Origin: Candidatus Electrothrix sp. GW3-4
GTDB lineage: Bacteria > Desulfobacterota > Desulfobulbia > Desulfobulbales > Desulfobulbaceae
Reading direction: 5' to 3'
Length of the DNA: 32,000 nt
NCBI RefSeq assembly: GCF_037902255.1
Contig: NZ_CP147990.1
Span: 60,001 to 92,000, forward strand
The translations under genes and the position numbers were made by a program. The notes beneath the pieces are model-generated. The model had not been told where the DNA came from, did not search any database, and saw nothing but the letters and a program-made list of their open reading frames with translations. This document shows, in pieces, positions 1-14,654 of this stretch; the first letter of the stretch is position 1, and each line of letters begins with the position of its first letter.

Positions 1-135
1 GGGATTGCCTTCCACCCCTTGGGAATCATCATACGTCACAAGGGGATTGCCTTGCGCCTCTTGGTAATCATCGTTCGTCACAAGGGGATTATCTTCCTTC
101 CCTTGGGGATCATCATGCGTCACAAGGGGATTGCT
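1..135. repeat. 42-bp tandem repeat, 3 full copies (1-42, 43-84, 85-126) plus a partial fourth, truncated by the window edge
   Basis: Copies share a conserved core ATCATCnnnCGTCACAAGGGGATT. The period is a multiple of 3. Both the + frame (ORF 19-252) and the - frame are open across the array. Confidence 0.9.
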
Positions 136-198
136 CTTCAGTCCAAAAAAGATATCCCGGAGGGACGCAACGTTAACAGTGGAACGAATCGCAACACC

Positions 199-921
199 TC
201 AACGATTTGCAAACCAGATCGCATAATCTTTTACTGGCTGATAGTTGTCTGAGGATTTATCCAGGACTTCTAAATCACATAAGGGAAACTCATACTTCTC
301 GCGTCCATGCCGTAACGACACCAGTATTCCATAGATATCCTCAATATCATCATCAAAAACATCATATTCTTCATCATCATCTTCATAAATACCCACTACC
401 GTTACCTGATCTCCTTCTTGTAACGGCCCCTCCTCTTGACACTCAAAGATCTCTGCCTCAAAGGGAAATTCCAACTCATCCTCAAGATACTCCTGCCATA
501 CCTCAAAGGCCGCCTCTTCACTCTCATCTTCAGCGTTGTCTAAGACGGCCTGTATTCTCCTGTCTATTTCCTCTGATTCTTCAGGATCTTCATCTGTCCA
601 AGTAAAATCATGCTTGCTTTCAATATCTTCAATTGCTTTTACGACATCGTCCACACTATCTCTGGCCGTTGTCTGTTCAACATCTTCTGGTGCAAGATAC
701 ACTCTGGCCCAGTCCAACCCTTCTACTTCACAGTAGACAATCGTCTTATCAGATAGCTGCTTGAGACTCAGGCTATCCCAATCTATGCCAATCAAACCGT
801 CTTCTTCCTCAATTTCAGCGACCCGTCCCTGCCATCCGCCGATGTTGATATTTAAATCAAGTTCTTCAACATTCGGTTTTACAATGACAGAATCACCGAG
901 CTGGAGTTTGCCTTGTGCCAT
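199..921 (-). CDS. Hyper-acidic hypothetical protein (240 aa from the ATG at 921)
   Basis: The ORF track gives 199..933. I prefer the internal ATG at 921 (MAQGKLQLGD), which follows GAGGA. By hand count about 71 of 240 residues are D/E, with runs such as EIEEED, DEDPEESEE and YEDDDEEYDVFDDDIED. I recognise no catalytic motif. Confidence 0.6.
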   Translation of the reverse strand: MAQGKLQLGDSVIVKPNVEELDLNINIGGWQGRVAEIEEEDGLIGIDWDSLSLKQLSDKTIVYCEVEGLDWARVYLAPEDVEQTTARDSVDDVVKAIEDIESKHDFTWTDEDPEESEEIDRRIQAVLDNAEDESEEAAFEVWQEYLEDELEFPFEAEIFECQEEGPLQEGDQVTVVGIYEDDDEEYDVFDDDIEDIYGILVSLRHGREKYEFPLCDLEVLDKSSDNYQPVKDYAIWFANR

Positions 922-1040
922 AATAATCCTCAATAAATACTATTTCCAAGCTGATACAATCTTCGATTGATGTTACCTCCCTACCCGGCTGTTCCTTCAG
1001 GACAAGGAATACATCCCAGAGGCACGGGGTGCCAAACATA

Positions 1041-1069
1041 TTGACATCACCATGAAGCTACACCATAAT
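1041..1069 (+). promoter_or_regulatory. Putative sigma70 promoter for the ATPase/DUF4276 pair
   Basis: TTGACA (1041-1046), a 17-nt spacer, then CATAAT (1064-1069), about 60 nt upstream of the ATG at 1129. Confidence 0.45.
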
Positions 1070-1128
1070 AAGGCGCAATCTTAATAAAATATCAGCGGGA
1101 AAGAAAGGCTGTTTTGCCGGAGAGCGTC

Positions 1129-2247
1129 ATGAAACTAAAAGAAGTGCATATAAAGGGATACAAATCTATTGACGGGCGGGTCGGTCAACGCATCCCCTTC
1201 GGCGACCTGACAGTCTTGCTCGGAGCCAACGGTTCTGGCAAAAGCAATCTGGTTTCATTCTTCAAGATGCTCAACTTCATGACAAGCGGAGCCTTGCAGC
1301 AATACGTGGGTAAATACGGGGTAAGCCATCTGCTTTTTTACGGCCCAAAACACACCGAATCCATCTCCTTTGAGCTTGCCCTTGCATCTGAATCCTCCCA
1401 TGATACCTATGAGGTGAGACTCGCGCACGGCTTGCCGGATCGCTTATTCATCAGCGGCGAAAAGATTACCTATCAGAAGATCAGCCCTCCTTCTCCACGA
1501 CCACAGGAGTATTTTCTTGACGCAGGTGGAAGTGAATCAGGGTTGGCAAGCGACCAAAGGAAAACCAGTGCAGTCTTGTGTCGCCTTTTGTCGGGGGTAC
1601 GGAGTTATCAGTTTCATGACACCTCAGACACAGCCAAGATGAAAGATCGCGGCTATATTGATGATGCCAAATATCTCCGCAGCGATGCAGGAAATTTGGC
1701 GGCTTTCCTGAATATGCTTAAACAAACGAAAGCGTATCAAAGGTATTATGATCGAATAGTTCGGCATGTGCAGCGCGTTATGCCGCAATTTCATGACTTC
1801 GACTTGGAACCGATTCCCGGCAATAAAGATTATGTTCGGCTGAACTGGCAAGATGCATCAGACAGTGATTATTTATTCGGTCCCGATCAGATATCAGACG
1901 GTTCCCTCCGTTTTATGGCCCTGGCAACTCTGCTGCTTCAGCCTCCTGAACTCCTGCCGACCTTTATCGTTCTGGATGAACCCGAGCTGGGGCTTCATCC
2001 TGCTGCTATCGGGGAACTGGCCGGGATCGTCCGGGCGGCATCACAAAAAACGCAGGTACTCCTGGCAACCCAGTCTACACGTCTGGTTGATGAGTTTTCA
2101 GCGGAAGATGTGGTGGTGGTTGAGCGGGATGAAAAGGAACGCTGTTCTGTTTTCAGGAAGCTTGCCGCTGAACACTTGCAGGATTGGCTGGAGCGTTACA
2201 GCCTTTCTGAGCTATGGGAGAAAAATGTGCTGGGAGGACAGCCGTGA
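1129..2247 (+). CDS. ABC/AAA-type ATPase of the AAA_15/AAA_21 (OLD/RecF-like) kind
   Basis: Walker A is LGANGSGKSN. SDGSLRFMALATLLL is signature-like. Walker B is FIVLDEPELGLHP, and ATQS follows as a possible H-loop region. Start chosen at ATG 1129 (MKLKEVHIKGYKSI), preceded by GGAGAG. Confidence 0.8.
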   Translation: MKLKEVHIKGYKSIDGRVGQRIPFGDLTVLLGANGSGKSNLVSFFKMLNFMTSGALQQYVGKYGVSHLLFYGPKHTESISFELALASESSHDTYEVRLAHGLPDRLFISGEKITYQKISPPSPRPQEYFLDAGGSESGLASDQRKTSAVLCRLLSGVRSYQFHDTSDTAKMKDRGYIDDAKYLRSDAGNLAAFLNMLKQTKAYQRYYDRIVRHVQRVMPQFHDFDLEPIPGNKDYVRLNWQDASDSDYLFGPDQISDGSLRFMALATLLLQPPELLPTFIVLDEPELGLHPAAIGELAGIVRAASQKTQVLLATQSTRLVDEFSAEDVVVVERDEKERCSVFRKLAAEHLQDWLERYSLSELWEKNVLGGQP

Positions 2248-2924
2248 TTCGTCTGCATATCACTGCCGAAGGACAGACCGAGCAGTCCTTTGCCGGGAAA
2301 GTGCTCGCGCCTCATCTGGCTGGCTTCGGTGTTTTTGTTGATGCACGTTGTGTCTTGACGAGCAGGGATAAAAGGAAGGCTAGGGAATATCGCGGCGGCT
2401 TGCTGAGCTATGAGAAGGCTGAAAAGGATATCCGGGCGTGGTTGAAGGAGGATGATCACGTGGAGTGCCGCTTTACAACTATGTTTGACCTCTACGCATT
2501 GCCGGATGATTTTCCTGGCTATGCCGAGGCCATGAGAAACAGCGATCCTTATGAACGGGTTGCAATCCTGGAGCAGAAAATGGCTGAGAGCGTCGGCGAT
2601 AGCCGTTTTATTCCATACATTCAGTTGCACGAATTCGAGGCCTTGCTTCTTGCCGATCCGAAACAGTTGGATTGGGAATATCTGGAGCATGACGTCCCAA
2701 TCGGCAATCTGGTTACTATGGTGGCAAGTCAGAATCCAGAACTCATCAATGATGGACCCGCAACGGCACCTTCAAAGCGCATTCTTAGCGAAATTCCCGA
2801 GTATGACAAGGTCACAGCCGGTGTTGCCGTTGCTGAGAAGATCGGCCTGCTCATGCTGCGGCAGAAGTGTCGGCATTTTAATGACTGGCTTACTCGGCTG
2901 GAACGACTTGCTCAGAAGGGGTAA
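2244..2924 (+). CDS. DUF4276-like protein (predicted Toprim-like partner of the ATPase)
   Basis: The GTG start at 2244 overlaps the ATPase stop codon (GTGA, 4-nt overlap). The N-terminus IRLHITAEGQTEQSF and the later MFDLYALPDDFPG and IQLHEFEALLLADP match my memory of DUF4276. Family assignment is from memory only. Confidence 0.6.
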   Translation: MIRLHITAEGQTEQSFAGKVLAPHLAGFGVFVDARCVLTSRDKRKAREYRGGLLSYEKAEKDIRAWLKEDDHVECRFTTMFDLYALPDDFPGYAEAMRNSDPYERVAILEQKMAESVGDSRFIPYIQLHEFEALLLADPKQLDWEYLEHDVPIGNLVTMVASQNPELINDGPATAPSKRILSEIPEYDKVTAGVAVAEKIGLLMLRQKCRHFNDWLTRLERLAQKG

Positions 2925-3192
2925 GGGCTGGTTTGTCGTATTTTTCTTTTTATTTTTACCTGCTATGGATACTGAAGAGAATAGGCCGAGGGCAATATCT
3001 CCAGAAAAATTTCTCTGCAACCCTTCTTCCTGTTCCGAAAAAAAACTTGCAGTTTACCTGAATCAGTTTCATACTTATTCTACACGCATATCCAGCGATA
3101 CTATTCAATAATGATCGTTTTTGTCAATTCGGAAACACCGTTTCCACCCCTGCCCCTACCGGGCAGGTCAACCTGATATAGCGAGGTTATCT

Positions 3193-4362
3193 ATGAAACA
3201 GCCGGAAGCCGCCTACTGGGTCGCGTCCATGTTAGGCCAAAAGAAAGGGGTGTCCGACCTGAACGTCACCGTGGGCAAGAGCCTCCAGGTGGAGATTGAC
3301 GGCGAGCTTACCCCGGTGAAAGTGGAACCGCCAGTAGACAAGCTCACGCCCTTTCAGACCGAGGTCTTTGCCCTTAATCTCATCAATAGCAATCAGCGCC
3401 TTCTCAATGATTTGGTGCGAACAGGCTCCTGCGATCTCTCGTATGTGCTGGGGGAGGGGGCTCGTTTCAGGGTCAATGTTTTTACCCAAAAGGGCTGTTA
3501 TTCGACCGTGATGAGGAAGTTGGAAACCAAGATCCCCACCATTGAAGACTTCGGATTTCCTCATTGTTTTTATGATATGGCCGAAGAACGCAACGGGCTT
3601 ATTCTTTTTACCGGAGGAACCGGAACCGGCAAGACCACCTCGCTGGCCTCTATTCTGAATCAGATCAATAAGAGCCGATCTGTTCATATTGTTACCCTGG
3701 AAGATCCGATCGAGTATGTCCATCCTCATAAAAAGGCGACCTTTAACCAGCGGGAGCAGGGCGATGACTTTGACAGCTTTGCCAACGGCCTGCGGGCGGC
3801 CCTGCGTCAGGCCCCAAAGGTGATTCTGGTCGGTGAGATCCGGGACCGGGAGACCCTGGAGATCGCCCTTACCGCCGCAGAAACCGGCCATGTGGTCTTT
3901 TCCTCCCTCCATACCATTGATGCGGGTCAGACCTTGAACCGTATTATTGGTATGTTTGACCATGATGAACAGGACCAAATTCGGGTTCGACTGGCCGATA
4001 CGCTTCGCTGGGTCGTCAGTCAGCGCCTTCTCCCCAAGGTCGGAGGTGGCCGGGTTGCATCCCAGGAGATTCTTCGCACCAGCCTGCGCGTCACCGATAT
4101 CCTGCTCAATGGCGAGGACGCTGCCACAGAAAAAACCTTTTATAATGTGATCCAGGAGGGCTCTACCCTGAGCATGAAGACCTTTGATCAGGATTTATTA
4201 GATCTTTTTACTCGGGGGCTGATTGATGAAAAGGCCGCCATGACCTATTGCACCAACCGGAGTGTCATTAAACGAGGTATGGATAATATTAAGGCCGCCC
4301 GTGGGGAAAGCACGACCAGTATCTCCGGCCTGGCCATGGAAGAGGAGGAAGGAGATGTATAA
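3193..4362 (+). CDS. pilT: PilT/PilU-family type IV pilus retraction-type ATPase
   Basis: Motifs seen: Walker A GGTGTGKTTS, TLEDPIEY, VILVGEIRDRETLEIALTAAETGHVVFSSLHT and SQRLLP. Start taken at ATG 3193 after GAGG; the ORF-track start at 3121 is less likely. Confidence 0.8.
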   Translation: MKQPEAAYWVASMLGQKKGVSDLNVTVGKSLQVEIDGELTPVKVEPPVDKLTPFQTEVFALNLINSNQRLLNDLVRTGSCDLSYVLGEGARFRVNVFTQKGCYSTVMRKLETKIPTIEDFGFPHCFYDMAEERNGLILFTGGTGTGKTTSLASILNQINKSRSVHIVTLEDPIEYVHPHKKATFNQREQGDDFDSFANGLRAALRQAPKVILVGEIRDRETLEIALTAAETGHVVFSSLHTIDAGQTLNRIIGMFDHDEQDQIRVRLADTLRWVVSQRLLPKVGGGRVASQEILRTSLRVTDILLNGEDAATEKTFYNVIQEGSTLSMKTFDQDLLDLFTRGLIDEKAAMTYCTNRSVIKRGMDNIKAARGESTTSISGLAMEEEEGDV

Positions 4363-4424
4363 GGGATTTCCGGTAGGACACGGTTTGCTGCTGCCTGAGA
4401 TGTTGCATAAGCAAGGAGAAGAGA

Positions 4425-5165
4425 ATGATCAGTAACTGTCCCCATTGCCAGGGCACGTTGAAGTTTAATGCTGCCCAGCTGGAAAAGATTGAGCAGGCCC
4501 TCAAGGCATTAAAGCCGGGCAAGCGCCTGCCCTTGAAATGTCCGCATTGCAAGAAGCCCATGCAGCTTGATGCTGCTGGCGAAGTTGAAGGTGCTGCCGC
4601 CCCGAAGAAGGGCCCTGAAAAGGCCGCAGCAAAAGCCGCAGAGACCAAGAGCACAGCCATTAAGCCCCCACCCCCGCCTCCCTTGGATTTTCTGGAGGAA
4701 AAACAGGGGGGTATTATGGAAGACCATGTGCGGGATGTCCCTATGGCCTTGGTCCTCCATTCTGATGACGGCATCAGGCATCAGCTGGGGGCGGCTATGG
4801 AGGCCCTTGGATACCAGGTGATGACCTTGACGTCAGCTGAAGAGGCCATAGCCCAGGTTGGCTCTGTCAATTTTGCCAGCATTGTTTTTCATGCTGGCTT
4901 TGAGGGAGGCCCCTTGGCAGAATCAATCTTCCATAATTTCATGCGCGATATGCCCATGTCAAGAAGGCGGATGATTTTTTATATCCTTATGGGGCCGCAG
5001 TTCACCACCCTTTATGATATCCAGGCCCTTGCCAACAGTGCGAATCTGGTGGTCTCAGATGATGACTTTAAGAATTTTCAGCTGGTCCTGCATAAGGCTA
5101 TTCCGTATTATGAGCAACTTTTTGGACCGCTTCTTGAGGAGTTAAGTTCTTACGGGAAAGGATAA
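4425..5165 (+). CDS. Zinc-ribbon protein with a Pro-rich linker and a degenerate receiver-like C-terminal domain
   Basis: The N-terminus has CPHC...x26...CPHC (MJ0042-type zinc-ribbon pattern), followed by KPPPPPP. The C-terminal ~130 aa (MALVLHSDDG...IVFHAGFEGG) resembles CheY-like topology but has His where the phospho-acceptor Asp would be. Confidence 0.5.
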   Translation: MISNCPHCQGTLKFNAAQLEKIEQALKALKPGKRLPLKCPHCKKPMQLDAAGEVEGAAAPKKGPEKAAAKAAETKSTAIKPPPPPPLDFLEEKQGGIMEDHVRDVPMALVLHSDDGIRHQLGAAMEALGYQVMTLTSAEEAIAQVGSVNFASIVFHAGFEGGPLAESIFHNFMRDMPMSRRRMIFYILMGPQFTTLYDIQALANSANLVVSDDDFKNFQLVLHKAIPYYEQLFGPLLEELSSYGKG

Positions 5166-5405
5166 CAACTGTATTTTAGGAGGGATTTAGCGTTTTTTTG
5201 TCTTGTGGGAGGGGGCGCTCGAAAAAGGAGAACCTGGGGTAATAAAAAAAAAGTCAGTCTTTCAGTAGGAAACAGTTGTTTTTCAGGAATATCTTTGGTA
5301 AAAGTTTTGGTTTTATATCCTCGCCCATGGGGGGCGTGGGAAAAATGAAATAATTACCTCATACTGATGACCGGTATGGACCGGTGGACAGGGGAAAAAA
5401 CACCC

Positions 5406-8356: not shown

Positions 8357-9346
8357 TTAAAAATGAAGGAACCAACGCAGGTAGCAGCGATTCCCGGCCT
8401 CAGGGAATGCCGCGCTCTCATCGCCAGTGGCAATGAATCCGCCCGCACTGAGGGTCATCTCATCACTGAGGCTGTAGGAAACAGAGGGCGCAATAAGGAC
8501 GGAGTTGTCCTCAAGGTCGGTGAGGAGCAGGAGCTGGTAGGTCCAGAGCATGCCAGATTGAAAGCTCCATTGGATGGCCAGCTGGTCAGTCATATTTTGA
8601 TCAGAAAAGCGATACTCACCAAGCAGGGTAAGAGAATGAGCAAAACCATATTCTGCCCCGAGGATAAACTCGGTAAAGACCTCTCCTGTCTCCTGGTTAT
8701 GCAGTCGTCCGCCTTCGCTACGCAGTTCAATGTCAGTTCCAGGCAGACGTCCTTCCAGTTCCCAGCCGATAATATCCAGTGAGGTATCGGCCCCCCAGGA
8801 CCAGTTTCGGTCATTGCCGTTATCTTGAAGGACGATGAGTCCTATATCTGCATATTCCAGATATCCTTTGAGGCGGATCGCTGCCTTGCCGTCTGCGATG
8901 GTGAGGTCCAGGTTGGACAGCTCGCTTAAGGCGTACTCATAACGGATTGCATCGGTGCCGCTTCGCTCGTCGGTCTCGACCGCTTGGACATCAACAGGGT
9001 TAAAGACATCAATGGGATTCCAGATACGTCCCACGCCTAGAGGAATGCGTTGTTTACCAATGGACCAGAAATGGCGTTCGCCCTGGTATTGGCCATAGGC
9101 CCGATAGAGCGAGAGCTCGTTGTCCAGCTCGTTCGGAGAGGTCGTGTAGCTGGTTTCATTATCCACGATCAGGGTGGCCGCGAGGTTGCTGTACTGTTCA
9201 TGACTCAGGGAAAGCTCTGCGCGGATGCGGTTATAGTCTGTGCTCAGATGGGCGCGATCATAGCCTGCGATGTTGGTGTTTTCCAGGGCCAGTTCCGGGC
9301 TGATACTCAGGACCCCGGCCAGCAGGAGTTCAGGAATTCCGCTCAT
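8357..9346 (-). CDS. Putative outer-membrane beta-barrel protein with an atypical N-terminus
   Basis: Alternating amphipathic strand pattern, aromatic girdle residues and a C-terminal ...RWFLHF, whose terminal Phe is typical of OMPs. No canonical signal peptide is present. An in-frame TGA two codons upstream prevents N-terminal extension. Confidence 0.5.
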   Translation of the reverse strand: MSGIPELLLAGVLSISPELALENTNIAGYDRAHLSTDYNRIRAELSLSHEQYSNLAATLIVDNETSYTTSPNELDNELSLYRAYGQYQGERHFWSIGKQRIPLGVGRIWNPIDVFNPVDVQAVETDERSGTDAIRYEYALSELSNLDLTIADGKAAIRLKGYLEYADIGLIVLQDNGNDRNWSWGADTSLDIIGWELEGRLPGTDIELRSEGGRLHNQETGEVFTEFILGAEYGFAHSLTLLGEYRFSDQNMTDQLAIQWSFQSGMLWTYQLLLLTDLEDNSVLIAPSVSYSLSDEMTLSAGGFIATGDESAAFPEAGNRCYLRWFLHF

Positions 9347-10022
9347 TGGCGATCACCTTGCCGTCCTGGAGAATCACAGAGTGCCTGGCCTTGTCAATCA
9401 CCAGGGGGTCATGGGAGGAAAAGATGATGGTCACGCCTTCGTCTTCGTTGAGTCGCTGCATCATTTCCATCAGTGAGGTGGCAGTGGTGGAATCTAAGTT
9501 GGCAGTGGGTTCGTCGGCCAGGATTAATTTGGGCGTTGCGGCCACAGCCCTGGCCACGGCAACCCGCTGTTGCTGTCCCCCGCTCATCTGCGATGGCAGT
9601 TTGTCGAGCAGGCTGTCAATGGCCAGTTTTTCTGCAACCTCAATGGTGCGCCGGTCGCATTCTTCCTGTTTACGCCCTTGGAGTTTCATGACGTATTCAA
9701 TATTTTCCCGGGCAGTTAAAACCGGAATCAGGTTGTAGGCCTGGAAGACAAAGCCGATCTGGTCCCGCCGTACCTGCGAAAGATCGGCCTGGGACAGACC
9801 TGTAATGTGTTGGCCGTCAAGGGTTACCTTGCCACTGGTCGGGCTATCTAGGCCGCCGATGATATTGAGGAGGGTTGTTTTGCCACTGCCCGACGGCCCG
9901 GAGAGGACCGCGAGGTCGCCCTGTTCAACGGTAAGGTTAATATCATGAAGGGCCTGGACGCGTATCTCTTTGCTGGGGTGAAAGGTCTTATTAATCCTCA
10001 TTATGCGGAGAAAGTCGGTCAT
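9330..10022 (-). CDS. ABC transporter ATP-binding protein (LolD/MacB/FtsE-like)
   Basis: Walker A GPSGSGKTT, Q-loop, signature LSGGQQQRVAVARA, Walker B LILADEPT and H-loop SSHD. Its 3' end overlaps the downstream ORF by 17 nt. Confidence 0.9.
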   Translation of the reverse strand: MTDFLRIMRINKTFHPSKEIRVQALHDINLTVEQGDLAVLSGPSGSGKTTLLNIIGGLDSPTSGKVTLDGQHITGLSQADLSQVRRDQIGFVFQAYNLIPVLTARENIEYVMKLQGRKQEECDRRTIEVAEKLAIDSLLDKLPSQMSGGQQQRVAVARAVAATPKLILADEPTANLDSTTATSLMEMMQRLNEDEGVTIIFSSHDPLVIDKARHSVILQDGKVIANERNS

Positions 10023-10319
10023 TGTGGATTGAGAAGGTTATGGTGGCTGTCTGGAAAGGAAGCTTGTTTCGTTCTCCCTTTCTGGCTCGAATATGCGGAG
10101 TCGATCTCCGAATTGTTTATGGGCGTATTACGGAAGAGTTGTTGCGACACAGAGTAGCATACCCCTCTTGTGGAGGGATTTCAATATTTGCGGGAGGCGG
10201 TGGCAAGAAGTTTGTCAGGACTCAGCTGGAGAAGGCTTTGTTGTTTGATTTGCTCTTGCATTGGACGGCGCCACATTGTACTTTTAAGGCATTGTCTATA
10301 CAATATAAAGGAGGTTCCT

Positions 10320-10517
10320 GTGGAAAAAGAGTCTGTTCGTCGTCAGCAAGAAGACGATGATAATAATAACTTAGTTGCAAGACATATTCGTTTTCAGCCG
10401 GTGTATGCAGAATTGATTGATCGAGCCTGTGCTGATTTAAAGTTGACCCAAAGAGAGTTGCTTGAGGAATGCCTGAAAAGATCCTTGGGGGATCCAAGTG
10501 GCATTTTTGATGATTAA
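10320..10517 (+). CDS. Small (65 aa) ribbon-helix-helix-like protein
   Basis: A GTG start lies 5 nt after a strong AGGAGG (10309-10314). ARHIRFQP (strand), VYAELIDRACADL (helix) and TQRELLEECLKRSL (helix) fit a CopG/Arc-like RHH layout. The long ORF-track N-terminal extension from 10170 is unlikely. Confidence 0.5.
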   Translation: MEKESVRRQQEDDDNNNLVARHIRFQPVYAELIDRACADLKLTQRELLEECLKRSLGDPSGIFDD

Positions 10518-10922
10518 TCAGCTCGCCTGATTCGGTCTCTCCTGTTTTTTTATTTTTACCTTCCAAATAGCGTGTTGTTCGTTGGTAAGAAAAGACCTTG
10601 GTTTGTTGCATGCCCGGATGCCTGGGGGATCTTCCCTGGCAAATGAGTTCGTTGCCTTATTGTGTAGACGGTATGGGATATGGTAACCTTTACAAATATG
10701 CACTCAGGGTACAAGTATTTTCACCTTGACGGTTATGGTTAAGTTTTTTATACTTCCTGTGAAGAGACAAGAGGAAACATTGGGTGCCAATGCGTTCCAA
10801 GGCTCTTGAAAAGTACAATAGCCGTGTTGTTCTGATCGACTCATATGATATAGAGTAGCAGGTTGAAAGCATGGCGATAAAGTTTATTTTACTTATCAGG
10901 CTATTCTTGAGGTTGATTTGTT

Positions 10923-11102
10923 ATGGATAATGAAAAAGCAAGGCATGAGCGTATCAGTGAATTGAAAAATAAAATTTACTATGCAGAGAGCGCACGAGAT
11001 ATCTATAAGGAAAAACACCCTATTCTTTACAATACAAACGCCTTTTATGTTGATGCGTTAAAGCTAGAGTTGCGCGGTTTAGAGTGCTCTAAGCGGGTGT
11101 GA
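10923..11102 (+). CDS. Hypothetical 59-aa protein, below the ORF-track cutoff
   Basis: The ORF runs from ATG to TGA and reads MDNEKARHERISELKNKIYYAESARDIYKEKHPILYNTNAFYVDALKLELRGLECSKRV. GAGG lies 10 nt upstream, and a terminator-like hairpin follows at 11183-11219. Confidence 0.3.
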   Translation: MDNEKARHERISELKNKIYYAESARDIYKEKHPILYNTNAFYVDALKLELRGLECSKRV

Positions 11103-11182
11103 CCCCACATTTCTCGTAATATAAAGAGAAAACCCTGTTTGGTCCTTCCTCCTTTTTTCGTAGACACATTCAGTGTACCCTG

Positions 11183-11219
11183 CCGGGTGCGTGCTCTGCA
11201 CGTGACCCGGTTTTTCTTT
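11183..11219 (+). terminator. Rho-independent terminator-like hairpin
   Basis: CCGGGTGCGTGC-tct-GCACGTGACCCGG followed by TTTTTCTTT. Confidence 0.5.
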
Positions 11220-11448
11220 GCCCTGCCGTCTGGATGCCTTTTTTTGATGTTGGAAAGTAGCTTTTCTATGACGAGGAGAGGTCGTTTTCTATTTATTTCA
11301 AATTGTTGCGACGTTGTGTAGAGCCCATATATCGATATGTAAAAATTTGTACTTCTGGTGGGGGATGTTATACTTTAACCGCCTTGAGAGTGTGAGGCGT
11401 GCTGTTGAAGTATTTGGCTGAAAGGAAAAACCCAGCACGAAGCCCGGC

Positions 11449-11486
11449 AAATAAAAAAGGAGTTAGCAAAAGCTTGCTAACTCCTT
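11449..11486 (-). terminator. Rho-independent terminator of the tRNA operon
   Basis: On the - strand a 13-bp stem AAGGAGTTAGCAA/TTGCTAACTCCTT is followed by TTTTTTATTT, immediately 3' of tRNA-Glu. Confidence 0.8.
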
Positions 11487-11494
11487 GATATGAA

Positions 11495-11572
11495 TGGCGT
11501 CCCCAACCGGATTTGAACCGGTGTTGCCGGCGTGAAAGGCCGGTGTCCTGGACCAGACTAGACGATGGGGAC
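11495..11572 (-). tRNA. tRNA-Glu (anticodon UUC), CCA encoded
   Basis: The reverse complement is GTCCCCATCGTCTAGTCTGGTCCAGGACACCGGCCTTTCACGCCGGCAACACCGGTTCAAATCCGGTTGGGGACGCCA. Acceptor stem GTCCCCA/TGGGGAC, anticodon loop CTTTCAC and a GGTTCAAATCC T-loop are all present. Confidence 0.95.
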
Positions 11573-11580
11573 ATATATGT

Positions 11581-11656
11581 TGGTGGGTCGTGCGCGGCTC
11601 GAACGCGCGACTCTCTGCTTAAAAGGCAGATACTCTACCAGCTGAGTTAACGACCC
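11581..11656 (-). tRNA. tRNA-Lys (anticodon UUU), CCA encoded
   Basis: The reverse complement is GGGTCGTTAACTCAGCTGGTAGAGTATCTGCCTTTTAAGCAGAGAGTCGCGCGTTCGAGCCGCGCACGACCCACCA. Acceptor stem GGGTCGT/ACGACCC, anticodon stem TCTGC/GCAGA and loop CTTTTAA are all present. Confidence 0.95.
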
Positions 11657-11676
11657 TTATTGCTGAGAGCGAGGCA

Positions 11677-11706
11677 TTTATACCATCTTTTTCTGGTCTG
11701 TGTCAA
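11677..11706 (-). promoter_or_regulatory. Putative sigma70 promoter of the tRNA-Lys/tRNA-Glu operon
   Basis: On the - strand: TTGACA (11706-11701), an 18-nt spacer, then TATAAA (11682-11677), about 20 nt upstream of tRNA-Lys. Confidence 0.55.
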
Positions 11707-11933
11707 CTGAAAAAAGCATTCTCTGTTTGTTTTTTTTAGTTGAGCTCCTTTCTTGCCCTATAGTGCTTGTTGCTTCGTGCTATCTTTGTTATAAGAATTT
11801 GGTGTAGTTTGCATCCTTTTGGGCCTGTCTTGATTCTGTACATTTTTTGAATGAAAAAAGAGGGGCAGGAGGACGTCGCATCAGAGACAGCAGATAGCCC
11901 GTGCAGGGCTTTTTTCTTTTACCAGGATGATCT

Positions 11934-12539
11934 ATGGGATTATTATCAGGGACGGCCTCCTTCACCCGTTTTATGGTGGAAGGTGAGGTGCCGGAGGATT
12001 TTTGGGATTTTGTTGCCCGGCGGGTGGCAGAGCACTCTTTTCAGGATATCGACGATACCATTGATGAGTACTCCATTGGTTGGGTCTCGGTCGCAGACAT
12101 GTTTGATAGTGATTTTGCTTTCAGTTCCTATGCTGCCGGAGATTATGTGATTCTGTCCATGCGTATTGATGAGCGTAAGGTCTCGTCAGCAGTGCTGAAG
12201 AAATTTACTGCCAAGGAAGAGGCACGTATTCGCCAAGAACAAGAGGTGCAGCGTTTGAGCCGTAATGTTCGCCTGGAGATCAAGGAGCGGATTCGGGCGG
12301 AGTTGGTGCGCAAGTCCCCCCCCATCCCAGCGGTTTATGACCTCTGCTGGAACCTCTCCAGCAATACCCTGCTTTTTTTCTCCAACAGCCGTAAGGCCAT
12401 TGCCCTGCTGGAAGACCTGTTTAAGGAGACCTTTGAACTCTCCTTGATCATGCAGATCCCGTGGAATACTGCGCTGCAGCTGACAGATCAGGCTACTGCG
12501 GAAAAACTTGGCGACCTGCAACCCGCATTACTCATTTAA
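11934..12539 (+). CDS. rdgC: RdgC-like recombination-associated protein (short, 201 aa)
   Basis: The N-terminus TASFTRFMVEG, then IGWVSV, ILSMRIDERKVSSAVLKK and the later LLFFSNSRKAIALLEDLF follow the order of E. coli RdgC landmarks (WFKN..Y, MGWVPP, RKEEKILP, SAKKAEDTLALLRKSL). Confidence 0.55.
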   Translation: MGLLSGTASFTRFMVEGEVPEDFWDFVARRVAEHSFQDIDDTIDEYSIGWVSVADMFDSDFAFSSYAAGDYVILSMRIDERKVSSAVLKKFTAKEEARIRQEQEVQRLSRNVRLEIKERIRAELVRKSPPIPAVYDLCWNLSSNTLLFFSNSRKAIALLEDLFKETFELSLIMQIPWNTALQLTDQATAEKLGDLQPALLI

Positions 12540-12611
12540 CTGAGAGGAAAACAGGAAACGAGAGGATCGGGTGTTTTGTGTAACTCAATCTCGTTCACCT
12601 TTGAGGACTTT

Positions 12612-13166
12612 ATGGATTTAGTCGATCTTATAGAAGAAAAACGTTTTCTTGGTCAGGAATTTCTTGCCTGGCTCTGGTTCAAGAGCGAAGAACGGGGCGG
12701 AAGTATTGAGCTTCCTGAACGGGGTGATATCCTGGTTGCCTTTGAAAAGCATATGTTGCTGGAGTACGGTGAGGGGCCAGAGAGTGAAAAATTGATCTGC
12801 CGAGGGCTGCAAACTGAATTGCGAGAAGCCCGGACCGGATTGACCTTGGGGAAAAAACCAGAACAGGCCAGGGTCAAGGTCGGCAGCGGTGATTATGAGT
12901 TCAGTATCACCCTGACGGCGGCCACTATGGAGTTTCGTAGTGTCCGCTTGCCCAAGACTGCCGGGGCCGGTGATGGTGATGGCGATGACCCGGAGAGTTT
13001 TGAGGGGCAGGTGCTGGAGCGAATTTCTTTGTTTGAGGAGGGAATTGAGCTGGTCAACGAACTGTTTCGCCTTTTTATCAGTATCAGGACATCAGGTGAC
13101 TGGTCCGATGAACTGGTGAAGCTTCGTGCGTGGATCTACACCAGTGCGGATCAGCTTGCCCGGTAA
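12612..13166 (+). CDS. Hypothetical protein, partner of the RdgC-like gene
   Basis: ATG 12612 is preceded by GAGGA. FLGQEFLAWLWFKSE marks the N-terminal region, and an acidic Gly/Asp linker (GAGDGDGDD) follows. I recognise no family with confidence. Confidence 0.5.
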   Translation: MDLVDLIEEKRFLGQEFLAWLWFKSEERGGSIELPERGDILVAFEKHMLLEYGEGPESEKLICRGLQTELREARTGLTLGKKPEQARVKVGSGDYEFSITLTAATMEFRSVRLPKTAGAGDGDGDDPESFEGQVLERISLFEEGIELVNELFRLFISIRTSGDWSDELVKLRAWIYTSADQLAR

Positions 13167-13232
13167 AGGGCGATGGGTTGGGTGGAGTTTTTTTTGTAGA
13201 TACCGAAAAAAATAGAAATAGAAGAAAAGCAG

Positions 13233-14654
13233 ATGGAATTTGAAACCGTGATCGGGCTGGAAGTGCATGCCCAGATGAAGACAAAGAGTAAGATATTCTG
13301 CGGCTGTTCCACCGAGTTTGGTGCACCGCCCAACACTCATACCTGTCCGATCTGTTTGGGCATGCCAGGTTCGCTGCCCGTGTTGAATAAGCAGGTGGTG
13401 GAAAACGGTATTAAGCTGGCCTTGGTCACGGATTCTGCAATTAATCGGGAAAATCGTTTTGCCCGCAAGAATTATTTCTACCCTGATTTACCCAAGGGGT
13501 ACCAGATTTCGCAATTTGAGCTGCCCATTGCCGAGCACGGTCAGTTGGAGATTGAGGTTAGCGGCCAGAAAAAGGTCATTGGTATTACCCGGGCCCATAT
13601 GGAAGAGGATGCCGGTAAGCTGGTCCATGATGATCTGGAGCCGAACAGCTATGTGGATCTGAACCGGACCGGTACCCCGTTGCTGGAGATCGTTAGTGAG
13701 CCGGACCTGCGCTCGCCTGAAGAGGCCGTGGCCTATCTGAAAAAATTGCACGGCATTGTTCGTTATCTGGATATCTGCGACGGCAATATGCAGGAGGGGA
13801 GTTTCCGCTGTGATGCCAATATTTCGCTGCGTCCTAAGGGGCAGGAGGAATTTGGCACGCGTACGGAGCTCAAGAATATGAACTCATTCCGCAATGTGCA
13901 ACTGGCCCTGGAGTATGAGGAGCGCAGGCAGCGGGATGTCCTACTGGATGGAGGTAAGGTTATTCAATCCACCCTGCTCTGGAACCCGGACACCGGTCGA
14001 ACCGAGTCCATGCGCGGCAAGGAGGAGGCCCATGATTATCGCTATTTTCCAGATCCAGACCTGGTGCCGGTCCTTATTGACGAGGAATGGATTGAGCGGG
14101 TACGGGGTGAATTACCCGAGTTGGCCGGAGAACGACAGCAGCGCTTTATGGATGATCTGAGCTTGCCGGAAGACGTGGCGGCTATCCTGACCTCATCCCG
14201 AGATCTGGCTGATTTTTTTGAACAGGTCTGTGTAGAATACGATAATCCGAAAAAGGCGAGCAATTTTATTACCACGGAGCTGCTCAGAGAATATAGTCCT
14301 GAACAGATTAACGAATGCCCAGTGTCGGCACCGAACATGGCTGCTCTGCTCCAGATGGTGGAGAAAAATATTATCTCCGGTAAGATAGCCAAGACCGTGT
14401 TTGCCGATATGCTGGAATCTGGTGATGATCCGGAAAAAATCGTCAAGGAAAAAGGGCTGGTCCAGATGAGTGACGAGGGCGAGCTGGTCGCCATTGTCCG
14501 CGAGATCATCGAGGCCAATCCTGAGCAGGTCCAACAGTTCCGGGAGGGCAAGACCAAGGTCATGGGCTTCTTTGTCGGTCAGTTGATGCAGAAGACCAAG
14601 GGCAAGGCCAATCCGCAGCTGGCGAATAAATTATTTGCGGAGGAGCTGAAGTAA
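13233..14654 (+). CDS. gatB: Asp-tRNA(Asn)/Glu-tRNA(Gln) amidotransferase subunit B
   Basis: Canonical N-terminus [21 protein letters not shown], then [30 protein letters not shown] and HMEEDAGK, with a YqeY-like C-terminal tail. Confidence 0.95.

Follow-up and report, generated by a model that had tools for sequence, protein, structure and literature searches.

Two overlapping genes at positions 1129-2924 of a 32,000-nucleotide stretch of the genome of the cable bacterium Candidatus Electrothrix sp. GW3-4 (contig NZ_CP147990.1; the whole stretch is here called the window) are, judged by their sequence, an intact member of HEC-01. This catalogued candidate anti-phage system belongs to the class that joins an OLD-type ABC ATPase to a Toprim protein. 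HEC-01, or Hma-embedded candidate 01, ABC ATPase + TOPRIM, was described by Payne et al. (2024, bioRxiv 10.1101/2024.01.29.577857) and is included in PADLOC-DB v2. By analogy with better known systems, we consider it likely that the pair is a self-contained and horizontally mobile two-gene module directed against phages or other mobile genetic elements, working as an ATP-controlled sensor and nuclease.

A first-pass annotation, made from the letters alone, had proposed a split defence pair in the style of OLD, PARIS or AbiL. This proposal stood in the full-length DUF4276 domain of the second protein, the OLD-like model and motif block, and the recurrence of homologous pairs in BREX loci; the pair is, however, not uncatalogued, and this copy is not in a defence island. 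It had also taken pairs of ATPase and DUF4276 protein to be experimentally uncharacterised, but HEC-01 has been tested twice in Escherichia coli, and Mad3 and Mad4 are required in the MADS system.

Organization of the gene pair

The first open reading frame (ORF1) runs from the ATG at 1129 to the TGA at 2245-2247 and encodes 372 amino acids, while the second (ORF2) runs from the GTG at 2244 to the TAA at 2922-2924 and encodes 226. Both are on the forward strand, as are all features of the cassette given below. The stop codon of ORF1 and the start codon of ORF2 overlap in the sequence GTGA (2244-2247), and a Shine-Dalgarno sequence, GGGAGG, is found at 2232-2237 within the final ATPase codons (...LGGQP), so that the whole coupling signal occupies 2232-2247. 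Since 34 aligned homologues start with M/V-IRLH at the residue equivalent to GTG 2244, this codon was taken as the start of ORF2 and the ATG at 2214 was rejected.

Ahead of the pair we found a sigma-70-like promoter, TTGACA-17-CATAAT, at 1041-1069. It matches the consensus at 11 of 12 positions, is the top-scoring site in 850-3250, and is base for base the same in Candidatus Electrothrix scaldis. On these signals, the two genes are predicted to be co-transcribed and translationally coupled. The ATPase motifs, the GTGA overlap and the near-consensus promoter named in the first-pass annotation were thus all confirmed from the sequence. The extent of the cassette, 1032-3037, comes from blastn of the window against a metagenomic relative (locus L097), where homology starts at 1032 and 2258-3037, that is ORF2 and its 3' spacer, is missing.

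Assignment to HEC-01

The suggested PADLOC search gave full-length best matches to HEC-01 for both proteins. ORF1 matched HEC-01A (PDLC04175, 1.3e-126), with residues 2-372 on profile positions 5-362 of 363, and ORF2 matched HEC-01B (PDLC04188, 2.1e-78), with residues 1-223 on profile positions 12-227 of 230. The A model, the B model and the adjacent same-strand arrangement of HEC-01 are therefore all present. The other PADLOC matches of ORF1 (mad3, AriA, AbiLi, NsnB, Old and GajA) are far weaker, and ORF2 matched no PADLOC model other than those of HEC-01B. All NCBIfam scores of the two ORFs are below the curated cut-offs, and ORF2 matched none of the families. The Pfam profile search, likewise suggested earlier, gave results far beyond chance: ORF1 has AAA_21 (9.8e-25, profile positions 1-304, the whole profile), SMC_N and the N-terminus of AAA_15, and ORF2 has DUF4276 (1.7e-54, profile positions 1-192 of 192).

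The ATPase

The sequence of ORF1 contains LLGANGSGKSNLV, QISDGSLRF and TFIVLDEPELGLHP (the Walker B stretch is also written FIVLDEPELGLHP). We examined their conservation in 50 homologues, with identities down to 39%. In the Walker A segment G32-ANGSGKS-N40 (1222-1248), residues G32, N34, G35, G37, K38, S39 and N40 are invariant. The signature-like segment S256-DGSL-R261 (1894-1911) is invariant at S256, D257, G258, L260 and R261; in the model it is found at the N-terminal end of helix 257-269, directly ahead of the Walker B strand, and hhalign places it on HGTQR of P2 Old. The Walker B and D-loop segment D283-EPELGLH-P291 (1975-2001) is invariant throughout and corresponds to DEPELYLHP of P2 Old. 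The switch (H-loop) position T314-Q315-S316 (2068-2076), aligned to THS of P2 Old, is invariant as well, and so is the C-terminal YSLSELWEKNVLGG tail. The block from signature through Walker B to switch was aligned to P2 Old by hhalign with 94.6% probability.

The AlphaFold2 (AF2) model of the ATPase is a compact ABC head (pLDDT 82.5) with no coiled coil. The alignment behind it was comparatively shallow, and residues 164-188 and 249-255 have low confidence. The nearest solved folds are the SMC and Rad50 heads, Septu PtuA and the retron-associated PtuA. With Walker A, the signature-like stretch and DEPExxLHP present and only the switch histidine of the OLD type lacking, ORF1 is assigned by its motifs to the OLD-type ABC ATPases.

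The DUF4276 partner

ORF2 begins with (M)IRLHITAEGQTEQSF and contains the internal stretch LHEFEALLLADP. Its AF2 model, based on 148 diverse homologues, has a pLDDT of 97.2 and a pTM of 0.92 and shows an alpha/beta core similar to that of solved Toprim domains. The top three PDB matches of this model are all from the C-terminal Toprim-containing region of Xanthomonas campestris OLD (6njw, 6njx and 6njv, probability 0.97-0.99), which bears out the Toprim-like structure anticipated for ORF2; the matches below them are generic Rossmann-like noise. A search of the DUF4276 profile against PDB sequences gave insignificant matches only (RqcH, E 0.2), and no solved DUF4276 structure was found by it. 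Foldseek comparison of the model with viral structures returned nothing meaningful.

Across the 148 homologues only E9, G52, D82, E130 and F212 are invariant, and E13, H129, E132, E166, C209 and H211 are kept in at least 90%. The earlier remark that an acidic Glu follows the first strand, as in Toprim folds, agrees with the model: E9 (2268-2270) comes directly after strand 2-8 and before helix 11-26, the classical position of the Toprim glutamate. D82 (2487-2489) ends strand 75-82, at the position of the Toprim DxD, and the acidic pair E130-F-E132 of the HEFE sequence (2631-2639) comes after the next and last core strand. E9, D82 and E130/E132 are the likely metal ligands, as suggested by alignment and model. 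HEC-01B has been described as sharing the OLD metal site (Payne et al. 2024, bioRxiv 10.1101/2024.01.29.577857), and the Menshen study assigned DUF4276 to the Toprim superfamily. ORF2 is accordingly described here as a full-length DUF4276 protein and a predicted Toprim-like nuclease, whose modelled fold is closest to the OLD Toprim region.

Distribution and neighbourhood of homologous pairs

A scan of one genome per GTDB species confirmed at least 578 relatives, and 80 loci were retained for analysis. At all 80 an ATPase homologue (39-78% identity) stands directly upstream of a DUF4276 gene (53-78% identity), and no DUF4276 gene without its ATPase was found among the homologous loci. The stop and start codons overlap or abut in 72 of 77 junctions: 52 are NTGA overlaps of four nucleotides, 17 are one-nucleotide overlaps and 3 are abutting, and the other 5 have gaps of 2-5 nucleotides. 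A GGAGG-like sequence in conserved Gly-Gly codons precedes the junction in these 77 loci. Proteins with 70-85% identity occur in Lentisphaerota, Kiritimatiellae, Spirochaetota, Chlorobiaceae, Planctomycetota, Synergistota, Gammaproteobacteria and Desulfobacterota; such identity across many unrelated lineages indicates that the pair has been transferred horizontally. These sequence comparisons indicate a strict, coupled and horizontally mobile unit. Moreover, 13 PLSDB plasmids contain distant pairs (32-39% identity). By tblastn, 50,697 phage records gave no meaningful match and hence no evidence of a phage-borne module.

Two genes on each side of the 80 loci were then assigned to Pfam families. 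They comprise 195 different families upstream and 164 downstream, with no recurrent housekeeping partner among them. The commonest families are defence-related but rare, among them PglZ (5 of 122), BrxL (3), ResIII/HSDR (2-3), GmrSD (3 of 112) and Eco57I/MmeI-type methylases (3). PADLOC recognised among the neighbours a type I REase, mad2, HEC-06 (GmrSD), a second mad3-like ATPase, PglX and DrmMI. In Desulfospira (L013) the pair adjoins NERD, UvrD-like, MZB and helicase genes. The conserved housekeeping neighbourhood that would have spoken against a defence role was not seen at the homologous pairs, which recur in BREX and beside defence genes.

These data also bear on whether the genes could form a housekeeping pair for DNA repair or chromosome maintenance, like RecF (ABC ATPase) and RecR (Toprim), or like an SMC-type head with a nuclease. 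An ABC ATPase with a Toprim protein is indeed also the combination of RecFR, the best PDB matches of the ATPase model are SMC and Rad50 heads, and the neighbourhood in the window is a housekeeping one, with RdgC, HU and S1. Several observations nevertheless contradict such a function. The distribution is patchy, and the 70-85% identity between phyla indicates horizontal transfer; the neighbourhoods vary, none being conserved across the 80 species; and close relatives have the nuclease gene disrupted or deleted. In addition, no NCBIfam cut-off is reached and ORF2 is in no NCBIfam family, the ATPase has no coiled coil, and elsewhere the pair is embedded in BREX. We therefore regard a housekeeping function as very improbable.

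Pairs lie inside BREX at 7-8 of the 80 loci, and about half of the close relatives are within type 1 BREX loci, between pglX and pglZ (L004-L006, L008-L012, L016, L019, L023, L024, L029, L040 and L098). Among them are a pair in Oligosphaera ethanolica (78% identity), also between pglX and pglZ, one in Bilophila wadsworthia on an integrase/relaxase island, and that of L098, whose ATPase is the closest one outside Electrothrix (82% identity). The embedding is recurrent, with the pair and the operon oriented alike. The pair in relatives is thus associated with BREX and with other defence genes, and such embedding is the embedded-defence pattern by which HEC-01 was defined.

The BREX locus of L098 (GCA_036681025) holds several embedded cassettes (L098:1239-2935 and 9436-14127). 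A second AAA_15/21 ATPase and its 175-residue partner are encoded upstream of pglX, and the interval between pglX and pglZ contains a PIF1/HEPN-like helicase and a DUF7017 protein in addition to the HEC-01 pair.

Close relatives and loss of the nuclease gene

In E. scaldis (L003) the pair is at the same place and the ATPase is intact, but a 6.75-kb block (L003:3284-10035) interrupts ORF2 near codon 37. The ORFs of this block include three for DDE transposases (DDE_Tnp_1_4 and DDE_Tnp_1). A further DDE transposase is present at the left end of the L003 locus, and insertion sequence activity appears to be high in this region of E. scaldis. In the metagenomic relative L097 (L097:5682-7079) the ATPase is intact, with 90% protein identity, and the promoter is kept. 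Here blastn matched 1032-2257 and 3038-4795 of the window; ORF2 is exactly deleted from after its fifth codon through window position 3037, and about 117 bp of unrelated sequence stand in its place. The ATPase has a ratio of nonsynonymous to synonymous substitution rates (dN/dS) of 0.054-0.059 in all three comparisons, which denotes strong purifying selection. By these sequence measures L097 has an orphan HEC-01A under purifying selection. Two independent losses of the nuclease alone fit a costly or dangerous effector and a dispensable module, and could equally mark simple decay.

The cassette also seems to have been exchanged recently within Electrothrix. Between GW3-4 and E. scaldis, the block of about 200-3200, comprising the ccbP gene, the pair and the spacer, has 92-100% identity in most 200-bp bins, and identity drops abruptly to 74-86% from the start of the pilT-like gene, its neighbour included (3200-5200). 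The synonymous divergence (dS) is 0.08 for the ORF2 remnant and 0.39 for the ATPase, as against 1.30 for the pilT-like gene. This drop and the contrast in dS therefore suggest a recent recombinational exchange of the block between Electrothrix lineages.

Two rival explanations draw on these losses. The first is that the pair is a BREX accessory stranded outside its system. It would work solely as a backup or guard effector of BREX or another methylation-based system, for example firing on inhibition of BREX, and the Electrothrix copy would be an orphan of little or no function, heading for decay. The closest relatives outside Electrothrix do lie between pglX and pglZ (L098, L004, L012, L016, L019, L023, L024 and L029), the nuclease gene has already been destroyed in two Electrothrix-type relatives, Mad3 and Mad4 work within a methylation-dependent system, and a literature survey of dyads of OLD-ABC and TOPRIM inside BREX has proposed a backup-effector role for them. 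However, the few BREX loci leave the rest of the 80, where the pair is still intact and coupled. The ORFs of GW3-4 keep every invariant residue and a strong promoter of their own, and the ATPase is under strong purifying selection (dN/dS about 0.06). On balance a stranded accessory seems unlikely.

The second is a selfish addiction module of the toxin-antitoxin (TA) kind, with a nuclease toxin restrained by the ATPase and persistence by post-segregational killing in place of phage defence. This agrees with the tight overlapping two-gene unit, its patchy distribution and its occurrence on plasmids, with the tolerated loss of the nuclease alone, whereas no DUF4276 gene was found without the ATPase, and with the Pfam description of AAA_21 as 'putative AbiEii toxin, Type IV TA system'. 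An addiction module, however, would not be expected to be embedded recurrently and in the same orientation in BREX operons. Phage protection has been reported once for HEC-01, and an ABC ATPase of 372 residues with fully conserved nucleotide-binding motifs exceeds the needs of an antitoxin. The addiction and defence readings overlap, because abortive-infection systems are often TA-like. As the sole role of the pair, addiction appears rather improbable.

Comparison with known systems

The pair agrees with HEC-01 in architecture, an ABC ATPase gene followed by a gene for a TOPRIM-like protein, and in habit, being found embedded in methylation-based defence loci yet also alone. It differs in that the GW3-4 copy stands alone in a housekeeping region of a cable bacterium and that its close relatives are embedded in BREX, whereas the type was first found in Hma.

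PARIS is the best mechanistic model for the pair as far as analogy goes. It too is a split two-gene system of an OLD-ABC sensor and a Toprim effector that also occurs within BREX loci; when Ocr is sensed, its ATPase scaffold lets go of the nuclease, which cuts tRNA. The pair is nevertheless not PARIS, which has an AriB-type DUF4435 protein and an AriA-type ATPase. ORF2 is a DUF4276 protein without an AriB match in PADLOC; the AriA model covers only residues 238-321 of the ATPase (8.1e-24 against 1.3e-126 for HEC-01A); and AriA has 53-55 kDa, while the ATPase of ORF1 has about 370 residues.

OLD resembles the pair in the signature, Walker B and switch block that ORF1 shares with P2 Old, and the nearest solved fold of ORF2 is the C-terminal Toprim region of class 2 OLD. 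In OLD and GajA, however, ATPase and Toprim are fused, whereas here they are encoded by separate overlapping genes; the switch residue is Gln and not His, and Toprim similarity to P2 Old is not detected at the sequence level. Gabija differs further by its GajB-type helicase, in the place of which the next downstream gene here encodes a PilT/T2SSE-type ATPase.

In MADS, Mad3 is a related ATPase (mad3 in PADLOC, 5.2e-32) and Mad4 has been described as a DUF4276 homologue. Both mad3 and mad4 are genetically required for MADS defence, and deletion of mad3 relieves the lethality of a mad5 deletion. Unlike these, ORF1 matches the MAD3 equivalog (NF047739) below threshold, with 88.2 bits against a cut-off of 420, ORF2 has no mad4 match, and the mandatory Mad6-8 and methyltransferase are absent from the window. 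Variants of Menshen (NsnABC) with a DUF4276 effector domain and AbiL (AbiLi + AbiLii/RloB) likewise combine an OLD-type ABC ATPase with an effector of the Toprim superfamily. The pair lacks NsnA and the NsnC N-terminal module, with no NsnC match for ORF2 and a weak NsnB match for ORF1 (1.5e-13); ORF2 has no RloB/AbiLii match either, and the AbiLi match of ORF1 is weak (4e-17).

Proposed mechanism

Since there is a single promoter and translation is coupled, the two proteins would be made in fixed proportion, and they probably form a complex. In it the ABC ATPase would be the sensor and regulator, binding ATP, dimerising head to head and holding or licensing its partner, and the DUF4276 protein would be the effector, a Toprim nuclease that depends on metal. 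Sensing of a cue from the phage would set the nuclease loose on nucleic acid and stop the infection, perhaps to the detriment of the cell. Aberrant DNA might serve as the cue, or a phage protein, for instance a DNA mimic that counters restriction, and the target might be DNA, or tRNA as in PARIS and reportedly in P2 Old. Complex formation, trigger, substrate and defence phenotype are what we infer by analogy with PARIS, OLD, Gabija and the genetics of MADS.

Several observations weigh against this defence function. First, published tests, made on representatives other than the GW3-4 copy, are divided. For one HEC-01, protection of E. coli B was reported against at least one of the phages T4, T5 and T7, though the text of that report gives no numbers, and a representative in E. 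coli K-12 gave no protection against any phage tried (bioRxiv 10.1101/2024.01.29.577857). Second, at most of the 80 loci the two nearest genes on either side include no recognised defence gene, and the 29 kb of housekeeping context downstream of the GW3-4 pair contain no BREX or other defence gene. Third, the structural match of ORF2 to OLD is modest (E 3.5e-3, TM 0.39-0.45), and hhalign of the DUF4276 profile with P2 Old gave no Toprim signal (probability 0.2). The literal DxD is absent from ORF2, where the motif reads D82-L-Y84, and the assignment of metal ligands is for this reason a provisional one. Fourth, the switch His is replaced by Gln family-wide (A-T-Q-S in all 50 homologues, S-T-H-S in P2 Old), and because of this replacement the ATPase may hydrolyse ATP poorly. 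One could speculate that hydrolysis is slow and that the ATPase is a latch rather than a motor.

A more specific version of the defence function is that HEC-01 pairs of the GW3-4 subfamily are PARIS-like guards. They would detect inhibitors of methylation-based immunity, such as Ocr-type anti-BREX proteins, the Gln-switch ATPase would be a slow ATP-latched clamp that sequesters the nuclease until triggered, and tRNA, not DNA, would be cut. This would explain the preferred slot between pglX and pglZ; we put it forward by analogy and hold it to be doubtful. If it is true, the stand-alone Electrothrix copy would sense phage counter-defence autonomously, in a lineage of which hardly any phages are known.

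The pair opens no new category of system. With it, a candidate defence family on which the two published tests disagree gains an intact HEC-01 cassette with its own promoter, from a cable bacterium. The pglX/pglZ slot of its close relatives suggests where to look for the trigger, the repeated loss of the nuclease alone points to the nuclease as the costly component, and the invariant E9, D82 and E130 together with the Q315 switch are direct targets for mutagenesis.

Surroundings of the pair in the window

The surroundings in GW3-4 do not form a defence island, and the 29 kb downstream are of housekeeping character. By tblastn, BrxA/B/C/L, PglX and PglZ had no match in the window, and the pair is not flanked by pglX and pglZ here. 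To the right of the pair are genes for a PilT/T2SSE ATPase (the pilT-like gene noted earlier, now identified by Pfam), ribosomal protein S1, HU, an ABC transporter, an RdgC-like protein and gatB; further right are a tusA-domain gene, prc, dsrMK-like genes, bioB and mscS.

To the left is a divergently transcribed gene (199-921, reverse strand) for an acidic protein of 240 residues, whose C-terminal half matches the calcium-binding family Calci_bind_CcbP (PF11535, 6.4e-19). This family is known mainly from cyanobacteria, and the protein of GW3-4 bears an N-terminal extension. Just downstream of it, in the same orientation, lies a gene for a small repeat protein. Its 42-bp tandem repeat (3.3 copies, 80% matches; window 1-139 and L003:820-1068, both reverse strand) is coding and specifies a 14-residue acidic repeat, NPLVT-D/N-DD-x-QG-xx-G, so that the product may be a second acidic, cation-binding protein. 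The hyper-acidic protein and the repeat locus had been listed as context of the pair. They are unrelated neighbours that do not travel with it elsewhere: the upstream neighbour in L097 is an LRR-Roc-COR gene in place of ccbP, and in the other species, where two neighbour genes upstream were surveyed, CcbP did not figure as a recurrent family. A link of the pair to either was therefore rejected.

A second AAA_21-matching protein of the window (9330-10022, reverse strand) is not another defence ATPase. It is an ordinary ABC-transporter ATPase (ABC_tran, 1.6e-36), and it is paired with an uncharacterised protein of 329 residues and an Rce1-like protease.

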